Below are positions 18,492-25,535 of a stretch of 64,000 nt of DNA, piece after piece. The stretch comes from Escherichia phage JSE: the sequence record EU863408; one strand, given 5' to 3'. The notes beneath the pieces are model-generated. The model was not told the DNA's origin, made no database searches, and saw nothing but the letters and a program-made list of their open reading frames with translations. The translations under genes were made by a program, and so were the position numbers. How positions within the stretch are numbered: position 1 is the first letter of the stretch; the number at the start of each line of letters is the position of its first letter.

Positions 18492-19088
18492 TTATTTGGT
18501 AGTACCGTCAATAAAATGTTTACGACACACAGAAACATATTTATCCTCTGCACCAACTTCTATTTGAGCACCATCGCGAATAACATTACCCTCTTTATCT
18601 ACACGAAGGACCATTGTTGCTTTCTTGCCACAATGACAAATACCCTTCATTTCGACCAGTTTATCAGCAAATGCCATTAATGCCGCAGATCCTTCAAATA
18701 GATTGCCCTGAAAGTCAGTGCGAAGGCCATAGCACAGTACAGGGATATTAGCATCATCAACAAGCGCACACAAGCCTAAAACATGCTCTTTAGTCATAAA
18801 TTGGGCTTCATCTACAAATACAGCATCAGGACGCCAGCGATCCGGTCTACGCTTACCTAACGATTCACGATAAACCAAATCGAAAAGATCATCCGATTTA
18901 GTGAAGGTGATCGCTGGGGCACTTAGGCCAATTCGGGAAACGACTTCACTTTCTGAATCTCGATTATCAATCGCTGGCTTAAGAATTAATACTCGCATAT
19001 CACGTTCTGTATAGTTATAAGCACTTTGTAACAGAGAAGTTGATTTGCCAGCGTTCATAGATGCATAGTAGAAATATAATTGCGCCAT
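18492..19088 (-). CDS. tk: Thymidine kinase
   Basis: P-loop MNAGKST, C-terminal CHCGKKA...CRKHF zinc motif; 198 aa as in T4 Tk. Confidence 0.9.
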   Translation of the reverse strand: MAQLYFYYASMNAGKSTSLLQSAYNYTERDMRVLILKPAIDNRDSESEVVSRIGLSAPAITFTKSDDLFDLVYRESLGKRRPDRWRPDAVFVDEAQFMTKEHVLGLCALVDDANIPVLCYGLRTDFQGNLFEGSAALMAFADKLVEMKGICHCGKKATMVLRVDKEGNVIRDGAQIEVGAEDKYVSVCRKHFIDGTTK

Positions 19089-19616: not shown

Positions 19617-19819
19617 TTACATTTAGGGCAATGCGGTTCTTTAATATAATACCCGTCTGTCTTTGGAACACTAACAGGAGCGGTTTTTATATTGTATTCA
19701 GTGAAACAACGAAAACAAGTTACGTTTTCTACAGACTGACGTTTCACCCAATCACCGGAATATAGATCATTTTTATTTGTCATATTCAACCACCACAATG
19801 TTAATGTCTGGAGTAGCAA
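19589..19819 (-). CDS. Small zinc-ribbon-like protein (76 aa)
   Basis: CFRCF...CPKCKC. Confidence 0.4.
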   Translation of the reverse strand: MLLQTLTLWWLNMTNKNDLYSGDWVKRQSVENVTCFRCFTEYNIKTAPVSVPKTDGYYIKEPHCPKCKCRLYWSHL

Positions 19820-20228
19820 TATTAATGATCTCTTCTACACATTCCCACTCAAGGCCACCGATACCGCAACCGATTTTAGGAATATAGAAAGGCTGTATAG
19901 CACCTTCAAAAACATCATTGATAGTCTCAAATCCTTTCAGGATAGCACCATATTCAGCATTTGGACCCGGTCGGAATTGGGTATATAGATTCACCCCGCA
20001 CCAGTTATAACCATTAACTTGATGCGTCCAGACACTAAACCCACCCAGCTTTTCTACCTTACCGCGAGAAGTTTGCTTGTCAATCTCTAACGCTTGCGGG
20101 AACTCTTTCGCGATCTTTGCAGCAATACCAGCACCCATAGTATGAAAACAATTACAACCATGAATTAAATGACCGTTTCCTTGTTTAAACAGGGCGATGA
20201 GATCGCCCTTTACAGTATCAATAATCAT
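19773..20228 (-). CDS. Macro-domain protein (ADP-ribose binding/processing fold, 151 aa)
   Basis: GDLIAL...GHLIHGCNC...MGAGIAAKI and PKIGCGIGGL resemble macro-domain motifs; GAGAGG RBS. Confidence 0.65.
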   Translation of the reverse strand: MIIDTVKGDLIALFKQGNGHLIHGCNCFHTMGAGIAAKIAKEFPQALEIDKQTSRGKVEKLGGFSVWTHQVNGYNWCGVNLYTQFRPGPNAEYGAILKGFETINDVFEGAIQPFYIPKIGCGIGGLEWECVEEIINIATPDINIVVVEYDK

Positions 20229-20243
20229 AATATAAACCTCTCA

Positions 20244-20603
20244 TTAGTCACGGGAAGACAACCCAGCCATAAAACGGCTTAACAGTGTGTCGCGATAAGC
20301 AAAGCATAATTGCTTATCAGGGGCAGTATCACAAAGGTTGCGTTTTGTTTTAGCAAAGCTGGCAATACTCAGATCCCACGCTCGATTTTTTCGTTTTTCG
20401 TCTCGACCTTGTTTGTATGCTTCGTCGAGTTCAAGTGCGATAAAATCACTACACATGTTATCATCATCACAGAAAGTTTTAATGATCTTTTTGTTGATCT
20501 CAAATCCTTTGTATTCGAACTTTGGATAAGGGCGCTCATTACTAGCAAGCGCACCAGCCGAGAACATCATAGCAATCATAGCAATTATTGTCAACTTTTT
20601 CAT
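20244..20603 (-). CDS. Periplasmic protein with signal peptide (119 aa)
   Basis: MKKLTIIAMIAMMFSAGALA signal-like N-terminus. Confidence 0.45.
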   Translation of the reverse strand: MKKLTIIAMIAMMFSAGALASNERPYPKFEYKGFEINKKIIKTFCDDDNMCSDFIALELDEAYKQGRDEKRKNRAWDLSIASFAKTKRNLCDTAPDKQLCFAYRDTLLSRFMAGLSSRD

Positions 20604-20610
20604 ATATTCC

Positions 20611-21201
20611 TCAATAGCGTTTAGTCTTAAGAATGCCTTTACTCTTTAGATGGTTAGCCTTTTTTAGTACATCATCAGCATAACCTAACCCGGCTTTATA
20701 GTTCCATCCAGCATTGTAAGAAGCTAGCGCGAGTCGGATATTACCGTTTCGAACATCCAGCCAGTATGCTAACTCATCCATCGCGTAGAATGCAGAAACC
20801 TCGCGATTCATGATAAAGTTGATAGTCTGGCGATCACTCATTTTAACACCGCGCTTTGCATTTTTCGCTTTCACCGTTTTAAGGTAATTTTGAAATAATC
20901 CATAAGCATGATGATTTTTCTTTGGTGCTAAGTTTGCACCCGCGCTTGATTCTTGCCATGCGATACCCGCCAGGATGTGACCTAAACCCTTTCCGTTATA
21001 GCGAATATTCGGATGGTCCTTTTTCAACTTACCGCTTTTCTCGAATTGCTCGCCGTATTGATAGGCGAAATGTAAATTATCTAGTTGGTGTGCTGTAAAG
21101 TTGTCTATCGGCGCTTTTTTGATCGGTGCGCTAGTCGATGCGTGTGTAGCACCAACGGCTAGTGACAGACTCAATACTATCGCTTTTAGAACTTTTAACA
21201 T
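20611..21201 (-). CDS. Secreted lytic transglycosylase (SLT domain) with signal peptide
   Basis: Signal peptide; GIAWQESS...YGLFQ...ASYNAG motifs typical of SLT family. Confidence 0.7.
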   Translation of the reverse strand: MLKVLKAIVLSLSLAVGATHASTSAPIKKAPIDNFTAHQLDNLHFAYQYGEQFEKSGKLKKDHPNIRYNGKGLGHILAGIAWQESSAGANLAPKKNHHAYGLFQNYLKTVKAKNAKRGVKMSDRQTINFIMNREVSAFYAMDELAYWLDVRNGNIRLALASYNAGWNYKAGLGYADDVLKKANHLKSKGILKTKRY

Positions 21202-21287: not shown

Positions 21288-21710
21288 TTATTGGTCTACC
21301 TTCAAAACAACCGCCGACATTTTACCCGCCAGTCGTTTTGGATTCTCTATAATCATTCGGCAGCATAGACCGTGATATGGCTTACCCTCTTCGATTAGAT
21401 CTACTGTCATCCCGATCCACATGTTACCGTCAGTAATTTCTAATCGATTCGGTCGGTCTTCCATTTTCAGGAAGTCGAAGATCTCCGGCAAACGAGTTTC
21501 TATCTTATTGAATAGTTCCATTGTCTTATGTTCATCGATATGACGATCGGTTAGACGGTCGATCATATGCGGACTAAAGCGAATGAAAATATACTCACCG
21601 TAACCATCATTCAAGCACTTTTCTTTGATCTGCGCATTGGTTTTGCGCATTTCGGTTTCGAAGAATCTACGCAGCTTACTACGGCGAACATGTACGTTAA
21701 TTGTTTCCAT
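21288..21710 (-). CDS. regB: Endoribonuclease RegB
   Basis: INVHVRRSKLRRFFETE, RLEITDGNMWIGMTV and CRMIIENPKRLAGK match T4 RegB as recalled; ATG 21710 with AAAGGATAA RBS. Confidence 0.8.
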   Translation of the reverse strand: METINVHVRRSKLRRFFETEMRKTNAQIKEKCLNDGYGEYIFIRFSPHMIDRLTDRHIDEHKTMELFNKIETRLPEIFDFLKMEDRPNRLEITDGNMWIGMTVDLIEEGKPYHGLCCRMIIENPKRLAGKMSAVVLKVDQ

Positions 21711-21714
21711 TTTA

Positions 21715-22050
21715 TTATCCTTTCTTAAACAAATTGCGAATCCAGTATACAAACGGGATTTCTTTAAACTTGAATTTCTCTATAGTTAATTCTTTAGTAG
21801 CAAGATGAATACCATAAGCATCATGTGTAACTATATGCCATTTTCTATAGCCCAAATGTGAACAACCGTCTGGATCTAGGTTAATAAGAGTTTCTCGCTC
21901 ACTAGGATTATTTTTCCACAATTTTGTAATAGGATCGCACATAATTCGACCTAGCGTACCATGAATAATCTCACAACGGTAAAGTTTTCCAGCAGTGAGA
22001 TAGGCGCACCCGTCATAGTCGGTATAAACAAACACTTCTTTAACACTCAT
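21715..22050 (-). CDS. Paralog family B protein (DGCSHL motif, 111 aa)
   Basis: ATG 22050 after promoter cassette; DPDGCSHLGYRKWHI. Confidence 0.45.
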   Translation of the reverse strand: MSVKEVFVYTDYDGCAYLTAGKLYRCEIIHGTLGRIMCDPITKLWKNNPSERETLINLDPDGCSHLGYRKWHIVTHDAYGIHLATKELTIEKFKFKEIPFVYWIRNLFKKG

Positions 22051-22081
22051 TTTAATACTCCTTTGTTGTTTCGATGGGGGT

Positions 22082-22110
22082 ATATTACTACCCCCGATCA
22101 TGTGTGTCAA
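22082..22110 (-). promoter_or_regulatory. Early promoter cassette TTGACA-17-TAATAT inside GGGGGTA/TACCCCC palindrome
   Basis: Minus-strand read. Confidence 0.6.
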
Positions 22111-22372
22111 CTACTTTTTCAAGATTTTTTTTGATTGCATTCCAAAGACCTTTATTTCCAGGTTGTTTTGGTTCTTCGATCAGTGTCCATGTTCGACCGT
22201 CTAAGTGTGCACAATTTTTAAGGCAAATAAAAATCTGGTGTCCCTTATCAGCACGGATATAACCACTATTCGCAAATCTTTCATGTGGTGTATATTCATA
22301 CAGTGTATTAGGTGTAATATACTTGCGGTTACTATAAGGTGTCATCACATACATCATGGTACTAACTCCCAA
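22088..22372 (-). CDS. Paralog family B protein (94 aa)
   Basis: NCAHLDGRTWTL motif. Confidence 0.4.
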   Translation of the reverse strand: MGVSTMMYVMTPYSNRKYITPNTLYEYTPHERFANSGYIRADKGHQIFICLKNCAHLDGRTWTLIEEPKQPGNKGLWNAIKKNLEKVVDTHDRG

Positions 22373-22548
22373 CGATCACCGCGAAGATGAGAACATCCAC
22401 CATCAAGAAGTATCGTAATACGATAACCTATATCATCTTTGATGTAACCGATTGTCGGTGGATTTTCGTCGTCTCGTGCCGGGGTAAAATCATACATCTT
22501 TCCGGGCGTAATATCTTGTCCTTTATTGCTATTGGTATAAACTTGCAT
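22354..22548 (-). CDS. Paralog family B protein (64 aa)
   Basis: DGGCSHLRGDRWEL motif. Confidence 0.4.
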   Translation of the reverse strand: MQVYTNSNKGQDITPGKMYDFTPARDDENPPTIGYIKDDIGYRITILLDGGCSHLRGDRWELVP

Positions 22549-22569
22549 TTTCTTAATCTCCTATATTAA

Positions 22570-23268
22570 CTAACCACGGGTATAGTGTTCCAGAACAACG
22601 GTCAGATGAATATATTCTAATAGATCTTTCCAAAAGTCAACATCTGGTTCTTCCGGCATACCGTTTTTCTTTGCCTCTTCACGCGCGAGTTTAACACGCT
22701 CGTAGAGATCTTTCAATTCTTCCCGCACATTATCAAAGGTTCTTTCTCCTAACTTACACGCTAAAATAGAAGAACGTCGCGCGAGCGGGAATTGTAGATC
22801 ACCTGTCTGATAGATTTCAAGTAGCTGATAACCAACACGCAGAGCATGAGAAAGATCTTTCCAGTTACTGAAATACTTTTCAGATTTGGCTACCTGCTTT
22901 TTGAGATAGCCAGACAAACCCCACATACCAACATGATAGAATTTATCTCGATGTGTTCGGATGTATTCCCATTCTCTGGAGGATTCAACCAACATGTTAC
23001 TAGGCGCGTGCACCATATCAATAGCGCCGATATCGCCTTTACATGCCAGATTGATAAACCGTTTTAGACTGAACATATTAACGTCAATATCGTCTTTGGT
23101 GTTCTTGATCCCTTGACCGCTAGTGCTTTGATCATAGTGTTCTTTCATCGATCCTAAGATAATTTCTTTCGCAGTCGGAACAAAGATACCACGATAATCT
23201 TTATCGGAATTTTCAGTATCAAGGCCGTATAAGTGAGATCCGAAGACCATTTTAACCATTGTATGCAT
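22570..23268 (-). CDS. Pol-beta superfamily nucleotidyltransferase (232 aa) with C-terminal helical domain
   Basis: FGSHLYGLDTENSDKD matches GS-x10-DxD nucleotidyltransferase signature, third acidic DDIDV; GAGGGT RBS. Confidence 0.6.
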   Translation of the reverse strand: MHTMVKMVFGSHLYGLDTENSDKDYRGIFVPTAKEIILGSMKEHYDQSTSGQGIKNTKDDIDVNMFSLKRFINLACKGDIGAIDMVHAPSNMLVESSREWEYIRTHRDKFYHVGMWGLSGYLKKQVAKSEKYFSNWKDLSHALRVGYQLLEIYQTGDLQFPLARRSSILACKLGERTFDNVREELKDLYERVKLAREEAKKNGMPEEPDVDFWKDLLEYIHLTVVLEHYTRG

Positions 23269-23281
23269 AATTAAACCCTCA

Positions 23282-23812
23282 TTAGTATTTTACGTTACGT
23301 CGAACGCCTTTTCGAATCTGACAAATAGCAGACGGTGAAACATTATATTTTCTTGCAAGTTCTACACCCTTCATATGGGGAGAAGATAAAATCTCTTCCA
23401 CTTGGTCGTCGGTAAGTTTTGCGTTTCCGTGGTTCTCTCCCCAATTTTTGTTTAATCCTTCTTCCTTCGCATGAACAAGATTTCGGGTATCTGTCGTCCA
23501 TTCAAGATTATAAAGGTCATAGTTTTGTTTGTTTCCATCCTTATGATTAACTACACGGTAGTTATTTGGATTCGGAATAAACGCAACCGCCATAGCTTTA
23601 TGCATGTTCACGGTTTTTCTAAATCCATCCGGCTTATAACATACTGTAAATTTAGAATAACCAGTTTTACCATAAACACTAATATAATTTCCGGTCTCCG
23701 TATTTCTAACCCTACCATGAGAGCTAATCTCAAATTGAGTGTAGGGCAACAGCGCATCAATCACTTTCCATTCTTCGACAGGATGGTCATCACAATATCT
23801 TTTAATCATCAT
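23282..23812 (-). CDS. Free-standing HNH homing endonuclease with C-terminal HTH
   Basis: FIPNPNNYRVVNHKDGNKQNYDLYNLEWTT HNH motif; C-terminal LTDDQVEEIL...ARKYNVSPSAICQIRKG helix-turn-helix. Confidence 0.8.
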   Translation of the reverse strand: MMIKRYCDDHPVEEWKVIDALLPYTQFEISSHGRVRNTETGNYISVYGKTGYSKFTVCYKPDGFRKTVNMHKAMAVAFIPNPNNYRVVNHKDGNKQNYDLYNLEWTTDTRNLVHAKEEGLNKNWGENHGNAKLTDDQVEEILSSPHMKGVELARKYNVSPSAICQIRKGVRRNVKY

Positions 23813-23859: not shown

Positions 23860-24276
23860 TTACATTGCTTCCGTAAAGGTGCGCGAAATAACGTCACGTT
23901 GTTGGTCTGGAGTCAGACTATTGAATCTTACGGCATATCCGCTAACGCGAATGGTTAGTTGCGGATACTTATCAGGATTAGCAACCGCATCGAGAAGAAG
24001 ATCGCGACTCATAACATTGATATTAGCGTGCTGACCACCTTCGACAACCGGAGCACCATTATCTACAATCACCGGACGGAAGCTAGTTGTGTGCAGTGCC
24101 AGAGAATCGACGTCTTCTGCGGTGATCACATGGTCTTCTGCGAAAGTTTTACTAACAATTACTTTAGCGCCGATCAGTGCTTTCGGTTCGGATACCAGAA
24201 TCATAGGCGCGAAGTGTCCACCAATAATAGTACCTTTATGCTCACCTTTCATGATTTGAATTGCTTTAAATTCCAT
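23860..24276 (-). CDS. grcA: Autonomous glycyl radical cofactor GrcA (YfiD-like)
   Basis: C-terminal GGQHANINV...[36 protein letters not shown] nearly matches E. coli GrcA as recalled (RVSGYAV glycyl-radical loop); AAGAGGTGA RBS. Confidence 0.9.
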
Positions 24277-24411: not shown

Positions 24412-24897
24412 TTAGTTGATACCTAAGCCAATGAAAATAGGTTGGTCTTCTACATTACCCATCCCAACACTAAGTCGATTCAATTCTAAAAACTGCAATA
24501 CGCTGTCAGTAAATCCGCGCATGGTAGTATCTAGGATAAAAATTGTTTTGTCAAGACTACGACCTCGCCATGTGATCGGATTCAGGAAAGTTCGGATAGA
24601 TGTACAATCTACATCTGAAATATTTACATTTTCACCGCGACCGCGATCTCGGATCGTTTTGGCATGTTCCCGCGTCGTTGAAACGATAAAGACACTATAG
24701 CCTTTTCGCGTATAATGGTCATATAACTTGATTGTAGCGTCTGTATGCCCTGTCTGACGGCCTAAATTGATTGAGACGATGGAATCTAGGTCATCAGCAA
24801 AATTGCGTCGCTTACGGCGTTCTATGATGCCATTTACGGCAGATACACACGCAGCATAAATCAAATCTTTACTTTCTAATTTTACATCAATATTCAT
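24412..24897 (-). CDS. Hypothetical protein (161 aa), possible degenerate P-loop (GRQTGHT)
   Basis: ORF with GGAGAC RBS; weak P-loop-like and hhhhD motifs only. Confidence 0.4.
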   Translation of the reverse strand: MNIDVKLESKDLIYAACVSAVNGIIERRKRRNFADDLDSIVSINLGRQTGHTDATIKLYDHYTRKGYSVFIVSTTREHAKTIRDRGRGENVNISDVDCTSIRTFLNPITWRGRSLDKTIFILDTTMRGFTDSVLQFLELNRLSVGMGNVEDQPIFIGLGIN

Positions 24898-24959: not shown

Positions 24960-25535
24960 TTATTTTGGATCTGGGAAATTCAATAGAGCATATTCTCCAT
25001 AAAATTTCCTAGCTGCATTATCATAAGCGATTGCAGCTTCGATTTCTGTGTCATATTGTCCAAGAACATGTCTTTGTAGGTTGACCATTATACTAGCTCT
25101 CCATTTCTTACGCAAATCCTTCCTGTTACACTTACTAACACCCTTATACACACTAGAAAACTTTTTAGACTTCTTCTTTCTATTATGTTGATTTTGCGCG
25201 TCGGTTGCCTCCCTAAGATTTGGAGGATTGTTATTAGCAGGATTACCGTCAATATGATCAATTAATCTAACTTGCGTCCCATGTTCTAGAAACCAAACAA
25301 CCCTATGCACGAATAGATGAACTCTAGGAAGACCGTCATCTCTACTATGCCAAAATCTAAGATGACCATCTTTATTTGTTCTGACTTTAACTAAATCGCC
25401 GTGTTTATATCTACTCCCTAATGGTCGTCCTTTGATAGCTTTACTATCGACTCTATAATATAAGATACCCTCTATATGAGCATATCTAAGTTTTATCTCG
25501 TTTTGTAGGGATTCATCCCAATATTTAAAAGCCAT
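24960..25535 (-). CDS. HNH endonuclease fused to AP2 DNA-binding domain
   Basis: HRVVWFLEHG...IDHIDGNPANNNPPNLREAT HNH motif and C-terminal YKGVSK...WRASI...YDNAARKFYGEYA AP2-like segment. Confidence 0.75.
   Translation of the reverse strand: MAFKYWDESLQNEIKLRYAHIEGILYYRVDSKAIKGRPLGSRYKHGDLVKVRTNKDGHLRFWHSRDDGLPRVHLFVHRVVWFLEHGTQVRLIDHIDGNPANNNPPNLREATDAQNQHNRKKKSKKFSSVYKGVSKCNRKDLRKKWRASIMVNLQRHVLGQYDTEIEAAIAYDNAARKFYGEYALLNFPDPK

Follow-up and report, generated by a model that had tools for sequence, protein, structure and literature searches.

A predicted RlaP-family nucleotidyltransferase of the T4 NrdC.11 type and three small C-x-H-L...W paralogs in a Krischvirus early region

Organization of the locus

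The window is the whole 64,000-nucleotide stretch of DNA that was analyzed; it belongs to Krischvirus (RB49-like, T4-type coliphages) and is 96-98% identical to published Krischvirus genomes. Four ORFs lie on its minus strand (Table 1): a nucleotidyltransferase (NTase) gene and, downstream of it, three small paralogs that we call C, B and A. The first-pass annotation was correct that these ORFs are real, but the middle small gene more likely starts at ATG 22357 than at TTG 22372, because this ATG forms an ATGA overlap with the stop codon of paralog C and relatives annotate a protein that begins MMYVMT. A GGAG Shine-Dalgarno sequence lies upstream of paralog C. The NTase neighbors here are an HNH endonuclease and the small SH3-like paralogs, none of which has a HEPN domain, and regB (PF10715, E=2e-48) is found three genes downstream of the NTase gene. 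We agree with the earlier description of this region as one of early genes. Its arrangement differs from that of T4, where nrdC.11 is downstream of tk, rI and mobD rather than between vs.6 and regB as in Krischvirus.

Table 1. Genes and sequence features at the NTase locus, with positions in the window.
Feature	Position	Strand	Length and basis
NTase, nrdC.11 ortholog	22570..23268	-	232 aa; Pfam RlaP and phrog_388 matches, RB49 annotation
Small paralog C, RB49ORF097c ortholog	22354..22548	-	64 aa; family HMM, phrog_6261
Small paralog B, RB49ORF096c ortholog	22088..22357	-	89 aa; family HMM, phrog_15978
Small paralog A, RB49ORF095c ortholog	21715..22050	-	111 aa; family HMM, phrog_6261
GGGGG-loop-CCCCC intergenic hairpin	22095-22076	-	visible in sequence
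Sigma-70-like site TTGACA-17-TAATAT, overlaps hairpin	22110-22082	-	10/12 consensus score

NTase, C and B seem to share one transcription unit. The site in phage G37-3 that is equivalent to the hairpin has been annotated as a putative terminator. To judge from the sequence, the hairpin and the promoter-like site (together 22076..22110) probably mark the boundary between the NTase-C-B unit and a second unit that contains paralog A and regB.

The nucleotidyltransferase

Sequence comparison identifies the gene as the ortholog of T4 nrdC.11 in Krischvirus; its 232-aa product is predicted to be an RlaP-family (RNA-ligase-associated Pol-beta) NTase of canonical length. The protein scores 54.1 bits with the Pfam RlaP profile (PF10127; gathering cutoff 23, E=2.3e-14), with residues 7-191 aligned to positions 24-198 of 249, and also matches the phrog_388 'nucleotidyltransferase' family (E=2e-79). 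Searches recovered 281 homologs, including the T4-type NrdC.11 proteins, and PF10127 was detected in all 120 of those listed. The early-gene module had been called uncharacterised on first inspection, but RB49 annotates the NTase gene as nrdC.11 and published Krischvirus genomes name the product NrdC.11 or nucleotidyltransferase, so the identity of the enzyme is already known from annotation. In the PDB, neither the NTase sequence alone nor a profile of 23 sequences found a real relative, and NCBIfam and PADLOC gave no meaningful match to the NTase or to the small proteins.

The first-pass prediction of a Pol-beta-fold NTase with an intact catalytic triad and a helical C-terminal half is borne out. 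The Pol-beta signature, consisting of G-[GS], D-x-[DE] 9-13 residues further on and one more carboxylate on the strand that follows, is present in FGSHLYGLDTENSDKD (residues 9-24) and DDIDV (residues 59-63). Unconserved catalytic aspartates had been named as one observation that would count against the proposal; instead, D22, D24, D60 and D62 are invariant, together with G10 and S11, in an alignment of 23 diverse homologs. An AlphaFold2 (AF2) model with a pLDDT of 90 has a beta-rich N-terminal half, with strands between residues 2 and 96 and the catalytic residues at strand ends, followed by an all-helical C-terminal half (residues 116-230). The pairwise dN/dS ratio of 0.04 shows that the NTase is under strong purifying selection.

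Comparison with T4 NrdC.11 reveals a large difference in length, because the T4 ortholog has 336 aa. Most of the T4-type proteins carry a central insert of ~100 aa with conserved KYG-x-KGSR and YGERA motifs, whereas the short Krischvirus form lacks the insert and aligns collinearly with the RlaP profile. The substrate range of the Krischvirus enzyme could therefore differ. Bacterial RlaP proteins, such as those encoded in rtcB-rtcA operons of Pseudomonas fluorescens and P. aeruginosa, share the two-domain layout of the Krischvirus model; the crystal structure of PfRlaP consists of an N-terminal NTase domain and a C-terminal helical domain (preprint PMC12776372). These bacterial enzymes are only distantly related, and T4 NrdC.11 falls into a separate similarity-network cluster (preprint PMC12776372). 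Some phage relatives, like these Pseudomonas genes, are next to RtcB, but no ligase gene adjoins the NTase of Krischvirus.

The first-pass annotation had also pointed to minimal nucleotidyltransferases (MNTs) of toxin-antitoxin pairs and to antibiotic-modifying enzymes as analogs, but these proved to be distant fold relatives at most. The best structural neighbors of the AF2 model are Hailong HalB and the aminoglycoside enzymes ANT(4') and AAD(9), which share its size class and architecture but only 10-16% identity (Foldseek TM 0.35-0.48). MNTs of HEPN-MNT pairs consist of an NTase domain alone (~100-150 aa) and can be set aside, given the 232-aa length, the large helical domain and the missing HEPN neighbor; the only PADLOC match for the NTase was at noise level (E=0.03). 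ANT/Lnu resistance enzymes produced no NCBIfam match at E<=1, and Foldseek comparisons gave TM scores of 0.25-0.42 with 9-13% identity. HalB itself has only fold-level likeness, with no sequence match and no membrane-channel (HalA-type) gene next to the Krischvirus NTase.

The small paralogs and their family

We built an HMM exclusively from 97 non-Krischvirus members of the small family, and it matched all three genes (C, E=3e-21; B, E=2e-22; A, E=3e-13) and nothing further in the 64-kb window. BLASTP also connects C with B (E=7e-12) and C with A (E=2e-4), though the match between B and A is marginal (E=0.015). C and A belong to phrog_6261 (E=1e-28 and E=2e-37, respectively) and B to phrog_15978 (E=8e-59), and these two PHROG families cross-match each other. 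These comparisons agree with the original proposal that the genes are paralogs. The motif first proposed for them, D-G-C-x-H-L-x-G-x-x-W, is valid in part: C-[AS]-H-L-x(4)-W is common to all three, but the middle copy lacks the leading D-G, and in the third copy the G that comes after the Leu has a shifted position.

Paralog C is closest to the family consensus and retains T14, G16, K17, Y19, DD-x-G, C52-x-H54-L55 and W60. The protein is acidic (pI 4.75), and its AF2 model is an SH3-like beta-barrel (pLDDT 88). Paralog B lacks the G-K of the T-x-G-K-x-Y motif and has a basic C-terminal tail (GLWNAIKK...), which is frameshifted in this window. DNA alignment shows a run of eight A residues at 22125-22132 where five relatives have seven; the last codons are therefore out of frame, and paralog B has 89 aa compared to 81 aa in the relatives. 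Paralog A is divergent, having lost the DD-x-G turn while keeping T-A-G-K-x-Y and C-S-H-L...W, and carries a basic C-terminal extension of 36 aa that ends in WIRNLFKKG. It is almost invariant among seven Krischvirus genomes. Weak FosA matches of paralog A, which score at most 19 bits against cutoffs of 180-305, are noise.

Pairwise dN/dS ratios are 0.10 for A, 0.22 for B and 0.25 for C, and no positive selection on the small genes is seen in these values. Within the genus, two of the small genes vary to an unusual degree and are mosaic. In phage FL04, paralog C is truncated, and a metagenomic contig carries a C/B hybrid, with the NTase intact in both settings. The small copies are therefore dispensable one by one.

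The small domain comprises ~60 aa, with the consensus ...YITAGKxYEV...G.I.DD.G..I.I.L..CAHL.G..WEVVE. Its three motifs (T-x-G-K-x-Y, DD-x-G and C-x-H-L-x4-W) are all present in the family, and their residues are 84-100% conserved in the 97-member alignment. A search of 1.84 billion proteins recovered 353 representative clusters, and Pfam has no entry for the domain. Most of these proteins are stand-alone early or accessory gene products of many unrelated phages, encoded within arrays of small early or nin-region ORFs, and their median pI is 4.65. The domain also occurs as two to four tandem repeats within single proteins and in fusions with Z-alpha and DUF3850/ASCH domains. Fold searches of BFVD matched uncharacterised viral proteins only, and a literature search with the RB49 ORF names and PHROG identifiers gave no match. 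Among the closest known systems is Bas11 Gp54, a small SH3-like phage protein that triggers CapRel-SJ46 (PDB 9axb). The C-x-H-L...W domain is an undescribed family, and its frequency in the accessory regions of phages would justify defining it formally and screening it against host proteins.

Associations and likely functions

A study of two Pseudomonas RlaPs has shown that these enzymes extend RNA 3'-OH ends by one or two NMPs, prefer Mn2+ and do not modify DNA or proteins (preprint PMC12776372). In vitro they label many cellular RNAs and discriminate little among NTPs, their preferred substrate is the 3' end of a mimic of nicked tRNA, and RlaP restores the aminoacylation of over-trimmed tRNA (preprint PMC12776372). 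The same study lists T4 NrdC.11 as a member of the family. Comparative genomics led to the prediction that RlaP replaces the nucleotides that RloC-type nucleases excise, before the ends are ligated (PMC7824862).

We examined the surroundings of 80 NrdC.11-type loci from viral contigs and found RtcB, HD or HD-kinase genes within 2.5 kb of the NTase in 23 of them. RtcB (E=9e-110) is encoded 0.8-1.8 kb downstream in seven loci, an HD gene adjoins the NTase in ten, and a gene for an HD domain with a P-loop kinase is upstream in seven. Counting against a repair role, no ligase or kinase gene adjoins the NTase in this window, and the pseT and rnlA genes of RB49 are ~75 kb from nrdC.11. Together, the RlaP biochemistry, the repair genes beside relatives and the pseT and rnlA genes of RB49 make RNA end repair, and that of tRNA in particular, the best-supported function. 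Nucleotidylation of a signal molecule or host target, as suggested in the first-pass annotation, is less likely. From the RlaP biochemistry and from the neighbors of the gene in other phages, we infer an RNA substrate and cooperation with Pnk and Rnl1. Early in infection, the NTase would extend RNA 3'-OH ends by one or two NMPs without a template, relying on its G-S...D-x-D...D carboxylate triad and on a divalent metal. Its chief targets would probably be tRNAs cleaved and trimmed in the anticodon loop by ribotoxins of the host; PseT/Pnk and RnlA, whose genes are in other parts of the genome, could then heal and seal the ends to give full-length tRNA. If this is true, RB49-like phages hold a third T4 tRNA-repair component beside Pnk and Rnl1, and the phage would survive anticodon nucleases that remove a nucleotide (RloC-type) and not only those that simply nick tRNA. 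Because the Krischvirus enzyme is a compact RlaP of canonical length, it may be a convenient phage representative for the repair prediction.

Other activities can be envisaged for the NTase. It might put short 3' tails on host mRNA fragments, or on early phage mRNA fragments cut by RegB, and thereby deliver them to 3' exonucleases; the proximity of regB, only three genes away, and the shared ~10-kb early region in which T4-type phages have the NTase together with regB, vs and tk are in keeping with this idea, as is the broad RNA labeling by RlaP in vitro. Such a scheme would have Pnk remove the 3'-phosphate first, and the NTase would then help in the early-to-middle switch of mRNA turnover rather than in tRNA repair. 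However, RlaP adds only one or two nucleotides and prefers the nicked-tRNA mimic (preprint PMC12776372), the conserved neighbors elsewhere are RtcB, HD and HD-kinase proteins rather than nucleases, and regB is found within 1 kb of the NTase in Krischvirus alone, so we regard tailing as unlikely. We think it very unlikely that the NTase is a HalB-like enzyme and acts in counter-defense, by making a protein-primed or free oligonucleotide or by nucleotidylating a host protein or small molecule. HalB makes oligodeoxyadenylate, which gates HalA (review PMC13434031), and an example of the proposed product is an oligo-dA-like decoy that holds a Hailong-type channel closed. HalB is the best PDB match of the NTase model in Foldseek (9dbj/9dbh; E~3e-5, TM 0.38-0.48, 217 aa), aminoglycoside nucleotidyltransferases are also among the best matches, and the gene belongs to an early-expressed region rich in host-interaction genes. 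Yet this resemblance is modest; kanamycin nucleotidyltransferase scores about as well, which makes the match generic for an NTase with a helical domain. PADLOC, NCBIfam and PDB contain no sequence match of this kind, the family is RlaP, whose tested members leave DNA and proteins unmodified (preprint PMC12776372), and the RNA-repair neighbors of relatives point elsewhere.

The four genes were originally proposed to form a module, with co-occurrence as the suggested check. We compared the 80 NrdC.11-type loci with 12 loci of distant small-family members, found using an 11-sequence alignment. Small genes are near the NTase in a single NrdC.11-type locus, that of Krischvirus, and none of the 12 small-family loci contains an NrdC.11-type NTase. 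A functional module of the NTase and small genes is thus not supported. Still, a divergent relative, with an NTase that shares only 57% identity, has the genes in the same NTase-C-B order, and with the apparent single transcription unit this leaves room for a lineage-specific functional link. One version of such a link is that the SH3-like proteins recruit substrates for the short NTase, or regulate it, in place of the ~100-aa insert. The immediate tandem arrangement, the apparent co-transcription of NTase, C and B, the translational coupling suggested by the ATGA overlap of C and B, and the presence of small genes in both lineages seen with the short NTase form (there are only two) would fit this proposal. 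Against it, no small-family gene occurs up to 10 kb from the NTase in the other 79 of the 80 loci, except for a weak match (E=3e-4) ~6 kb away in one of them, and the 12 distant small-family loci show the same lack of linkage. The insert of the long form does not resemble the small domain; a search of 120 NTases with filters off gave a best E-value of 0.67, which also eliminates the small domain as a split-off insert. The NTase stays intact where C is truncated or fused to B, and constraint on B and C is unlike that on the NTase (dN/dS 0.22-0.25 versus 0.04). We therefore consider a partnership that replaces the insert quite improbable.

The complete explanation that we favor, and hold to be probable though by no means certain, is that the NTase repairs RNA ends and the small genes encode independent proteins. 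The small proteins probably lie between nrdC.11 and regB by chance in Krischvirus and are not NTase subunits or partners. Most likely, they are independent small binders with a role in host interaction or counter-defense. There is also an outside chance that this widespread SH3-like family neutralizes host factors of defense or RNA metabolism, that it was tripled in Krischvirus and that at least one copy aids the short RlaP. For example, a small copy might target RlaP to particular damaged RNAs or shield it from a host inhibitor. Features that we count as fitting this host-factor reading are the 353 clusters without a Pfam entry, the acidity, the tandem repeats and the fusions. Copy variability and the NTase-C-B order in both short-NTase lineages also fit.

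The nrdC.11 locus and its mobile insertions

All of the genes discussed here lie on the minus strand within a long early-gene array. The 2.7-kb region around the nucleotidyltransferase (NTase) and the small genes shares 96-98% identity with published genomes of Krischvirus, the RB49-like T4-type coliphages, with matches to Whisky, vB_EcoM_011D4, KFS-EC, RB49 and about 50 others. We assigned local gene identities from Pfam and the RB49 annotation (see table).

Genes of the early array around the NTase, in the direction of transcription
Gene	Position	Strand	Match
vs.8	24412-24897	-	
vs.6, Gly-radical protein	23860-24276	-	
HNH, NUMOD4/HNH homing endonuclease	23282-23812	-	NUMOD4/HNH_3
NTase, nucleotidyltransferase	22570-23268	-	
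Three small genes, paralogs C, B and A	21715-22548	-	
regB	21288-21710	-	PF10715, E=2e-48
vs.1, SLT domain	20611-21201	-	
vs	20244-20603	-	
tk.4, macro domain	19773-20228	-	
Three small ORFs	between tk.4 and tk	-	
tk, thymidine kinase	18492-19088	-	

The HNH gene is inserted between vs.6 and nrdC.11, a site at which RB49 has no such gene. Its ~176-aa allele is found in 011D4, phiS, Whisky and this window, G37-3 and FL04 carry a different ~197-aa allele, and in a 57%-divergent relative (locus L003) the same position holds a version of 198 aa. This polymorphism marks the site as a hotspot for mobile insertions. A second homing-endonuclease-like ORF of 191 aa (24960-25535, minus strand), two genes upstream of vs.8, is also missing from the corresponding place in RB49; its HNH-type N-terminal half is followed by an AP2-like C-terminal motif (...YKGV...WRA...LG.Y.T..EAA.AYD.AA).

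The nucleotidyltransferase belongs to the RlaP family

The first-pass annotation correctly placed a Pol-beta NTase and paralogous small genes in an early region, but it did not recognize the enzyme as the product of nrdC.11, an already known RlaP gene for which a role in RNA repair is plausible. RB49's own record names the gene nrdC.11, and a 2006 comparison of T4-like genomes noted a COG3541 nucleotidyltransferase domain in its orthologs (PMC1524935); there is little new in the enzyme itself. The protein matches Pfam RlaP (PF10127) with 54 bits against a cutoff of 23, and phrog_388 "nucleotidyltransferase" with E=2e-79. A database of 5.8 billion proteins contains 281 homologs, with PF10127 in all among the matches listed; most are T4-type phage proteins of 300-340 aa named NrdC.11 or nucleotidyltransferase. 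Many orthologs in GenBank/UniRef are wrongly called "thioredoxin", apparently after the neighboring nrdC gene, and one is named "HNH homing endonuclease".

The catalytic motifs reported earlier are present in the 232-aa ORF (FGSHLYGLDTENSDKD, residues 9-24; DDIDV, residues 59-63). G10, S11, D22, D24, D60 and D62 are invariant in an alignment of 23 diverse homologs, which removes the concern that the catalytic aspartates might not be conserved. The same alignment shows a central insert of ~100 aa in the T4-type proteins that is absent from the Krischvirus NTase and from one other metagenomic lineage (P0002, 57% identical to the Krischvirus NTase). The short form is collinear with the Pfam profile (P0002 residues 6-221 against positions 23-229 of 249) and the T4-type match ends at position 142; therefore, the short form is of canonical length, and it is the T4 form that contains an insertion. 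The insert is unrelated to the small domain encoded downstream, which counts against the proposed module of NTase and small genes.

In a confident AlphaFold2 model (pLDDT 90) the N-terminal NTase domain is rich in beta strands and the C-terminal domain is helical, in agreement with the architecture described for the PfRlaP crystal structure. Among solved structures, Hailong HalB and the aminoglycoside nucleotidyltransferases come closest in fold (TM 0.35-0.48, 10-16% identity). Given these low TM values and the lack of any sequence-level match to either in NCBIfam, PADLOC and PDB searches, we regard them as fold relatives rather than as families to which the NTase belongs.

RNA repair as a candidate function

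Two Pseudomonas RlaPs are reported in a 2025 preprint to extend RNA 3'-OH ends by one or two NMPs, with a preference for Mn2+ and, in a mimic of nicked tRNA, for the 5' half; they do not use DNA or proteins as substrates, and a tRNA that had lost a nucleotide could be made chargeable again by their action (restored aminoacylation). The same preprint counts T4 NrdC.11 within the family (PMC12776372). Comparative genomics has predicted that phage RlaPs refill nucleotides cut out by RloC-type anticodon nucleases prior to ligation (PMC7824862). We examined same-strand neighbors within 2.5 kb at 80 viral-contig loci that carry NTase relatives. RtcB RNA ligase (Pfam E=9e-110) was found at seven loci, an HD-domain gene at ten and an HD plus P-loop-kinase gene at seven, for a combined 23 distinct loci. 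These neighborhoods look like compact phage RNA-repair cassettes distinct from the T4 Pnk/Rnl1 pair. The seven environmental T4-like contigs with RtcB (L016, L017, L058, L061, L063, L069 and L071) encode it 0.8-1.8 kb downstream of the NrdC.11-type NTase.

In RB49, pseT (polynucleotide kinase/phosphatase) and rnlA (RNA ligase 1) are present ~75 kb from the NTase, and purifying selection on the NTase itself is strong across the genus (dN/dS 0.04). Together with the RlaP biochemistry and the phage neighborhoods, these data point to RNA 3'-end "filling" in tRNA repair as the best-supported function. We infer this substrate and cooperation with Pnk/Rnl1.

The small paralogs and their relation to the NTase

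The three downstream genes are paralogs, as had been proposed. C matches B (E=7e-12) and A (E=2e-4) by BLASTP, their two PHROG families match each other, and an HMM of 97 family members from outside the genus detects all three (E=3e-21, 2e-22 and 3e-13), with no further match in the 64-kb window or in the other RB49 segments examined. The middle gene B most likely begins with the ATG at 22357, which overlaps the stop of the gene upstream as ATGA, a correction to its earlier start; the invariant core of the shared motif is C-[AS]-H-L-x4-W, narrower than the motif originally described. These are real protein-coding genes. Paralog A is nearly invariant in Krischvirus (dN/dS 0.10), whereas B and C are several-fold more diverged, mosaic (dN/dS 0.22-0.25) and individually dispensable. 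Phage FL04 has an N-terminally truncated C (L097, 1453-1578). In one metagenomic contig a hybrid protein (P0122) joins the N-terminus of C to the C-terminus of B, consistent with deletion by recombination between tandem paralogs. Paralog B contains a run of eight A (A8, 22125-22132), against A7 in five related phages. This run frameshifts the last codons, such that the ORF reads into the downstream hairpin and ends ...KKNLEKVVDTHDRG rather than ...KKILKK; it may reflect either an error in sequencing or true slippage variation.

The earlier proposal that the NTase and small genes form a module is unsupported by co-occurrence. Small-family genes lie beside the NTase at one of the 80 NrdC.11-type loci, that of Krischvirus (a second locus has a weak match, E=3e-4, 6 kb away), and no NrdC.11-type NTase was found at 12 loci of distant small-family members. 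Other T4-type phages share the T4 arrangement, in which nrdC.11 has regB, vs.1, vs, tk.4 and tk 2-9 kb upstream of it; only in Krischvirus has nrdC.11 been relocated, to a place between vs.6 and regB. The adjacency is lineage-specific. We retain a partnership peculiar to this lineage as a minor and improbable alternative, because the order NTase, C-like, B-like is kept in a divergent relative (NTase 57% identical) and B is separated from A by a hairpin and a promoter-like site, which suggests that NTase, C and B share one transcript; the lack of co-occurrence beyond Krischvirus argues against it.

The small domain represents an unnamed, widespread phage family, the one mildly new element here. 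A word-indexed search returned 16 clusters, nearly all from Krischvirus, and 353 emerged when 1.84 billion representatives were searched exhaustively with a profile; Pfam, NCBIfam and PADLOC hold no model for it. Most members stand alone and are 58-75 aa long; their consensus is MKVKTDYxGCxYITAGKxYEV...G.I.DD.G..I.I.L..CAHLxG..WEVVE, with 82-100% conservation at T, G, K, Y, D, G, C, H, L and W. Some have 2-4 tandem copies within one polypeptide, and others are fused to DUF3850 (ASCH-like), Z-alpha or, weakly, a Tad2-like domain. In other phages the genes are found among small ORFs arrayed in early or nin regions, and no neighbor recurs across the loci of distant members. The family is acidic (median pI 4.65), and our best guess is that the proteins are SH3-like and bind some macromolecule of the host or the phage. 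B (22088-22150) and A (21715-21830), and also several distant members (P0144, P0137, P0168 and P0231), end in a short amphipathic tail of basic character (W-x-x-I-K-K-F-L-K-K or WIRNLFKKG). The tail appears to resemble the membrane-targeting helices of MinD and FtsA, and by this analogy a subfamily may associate with membranes.
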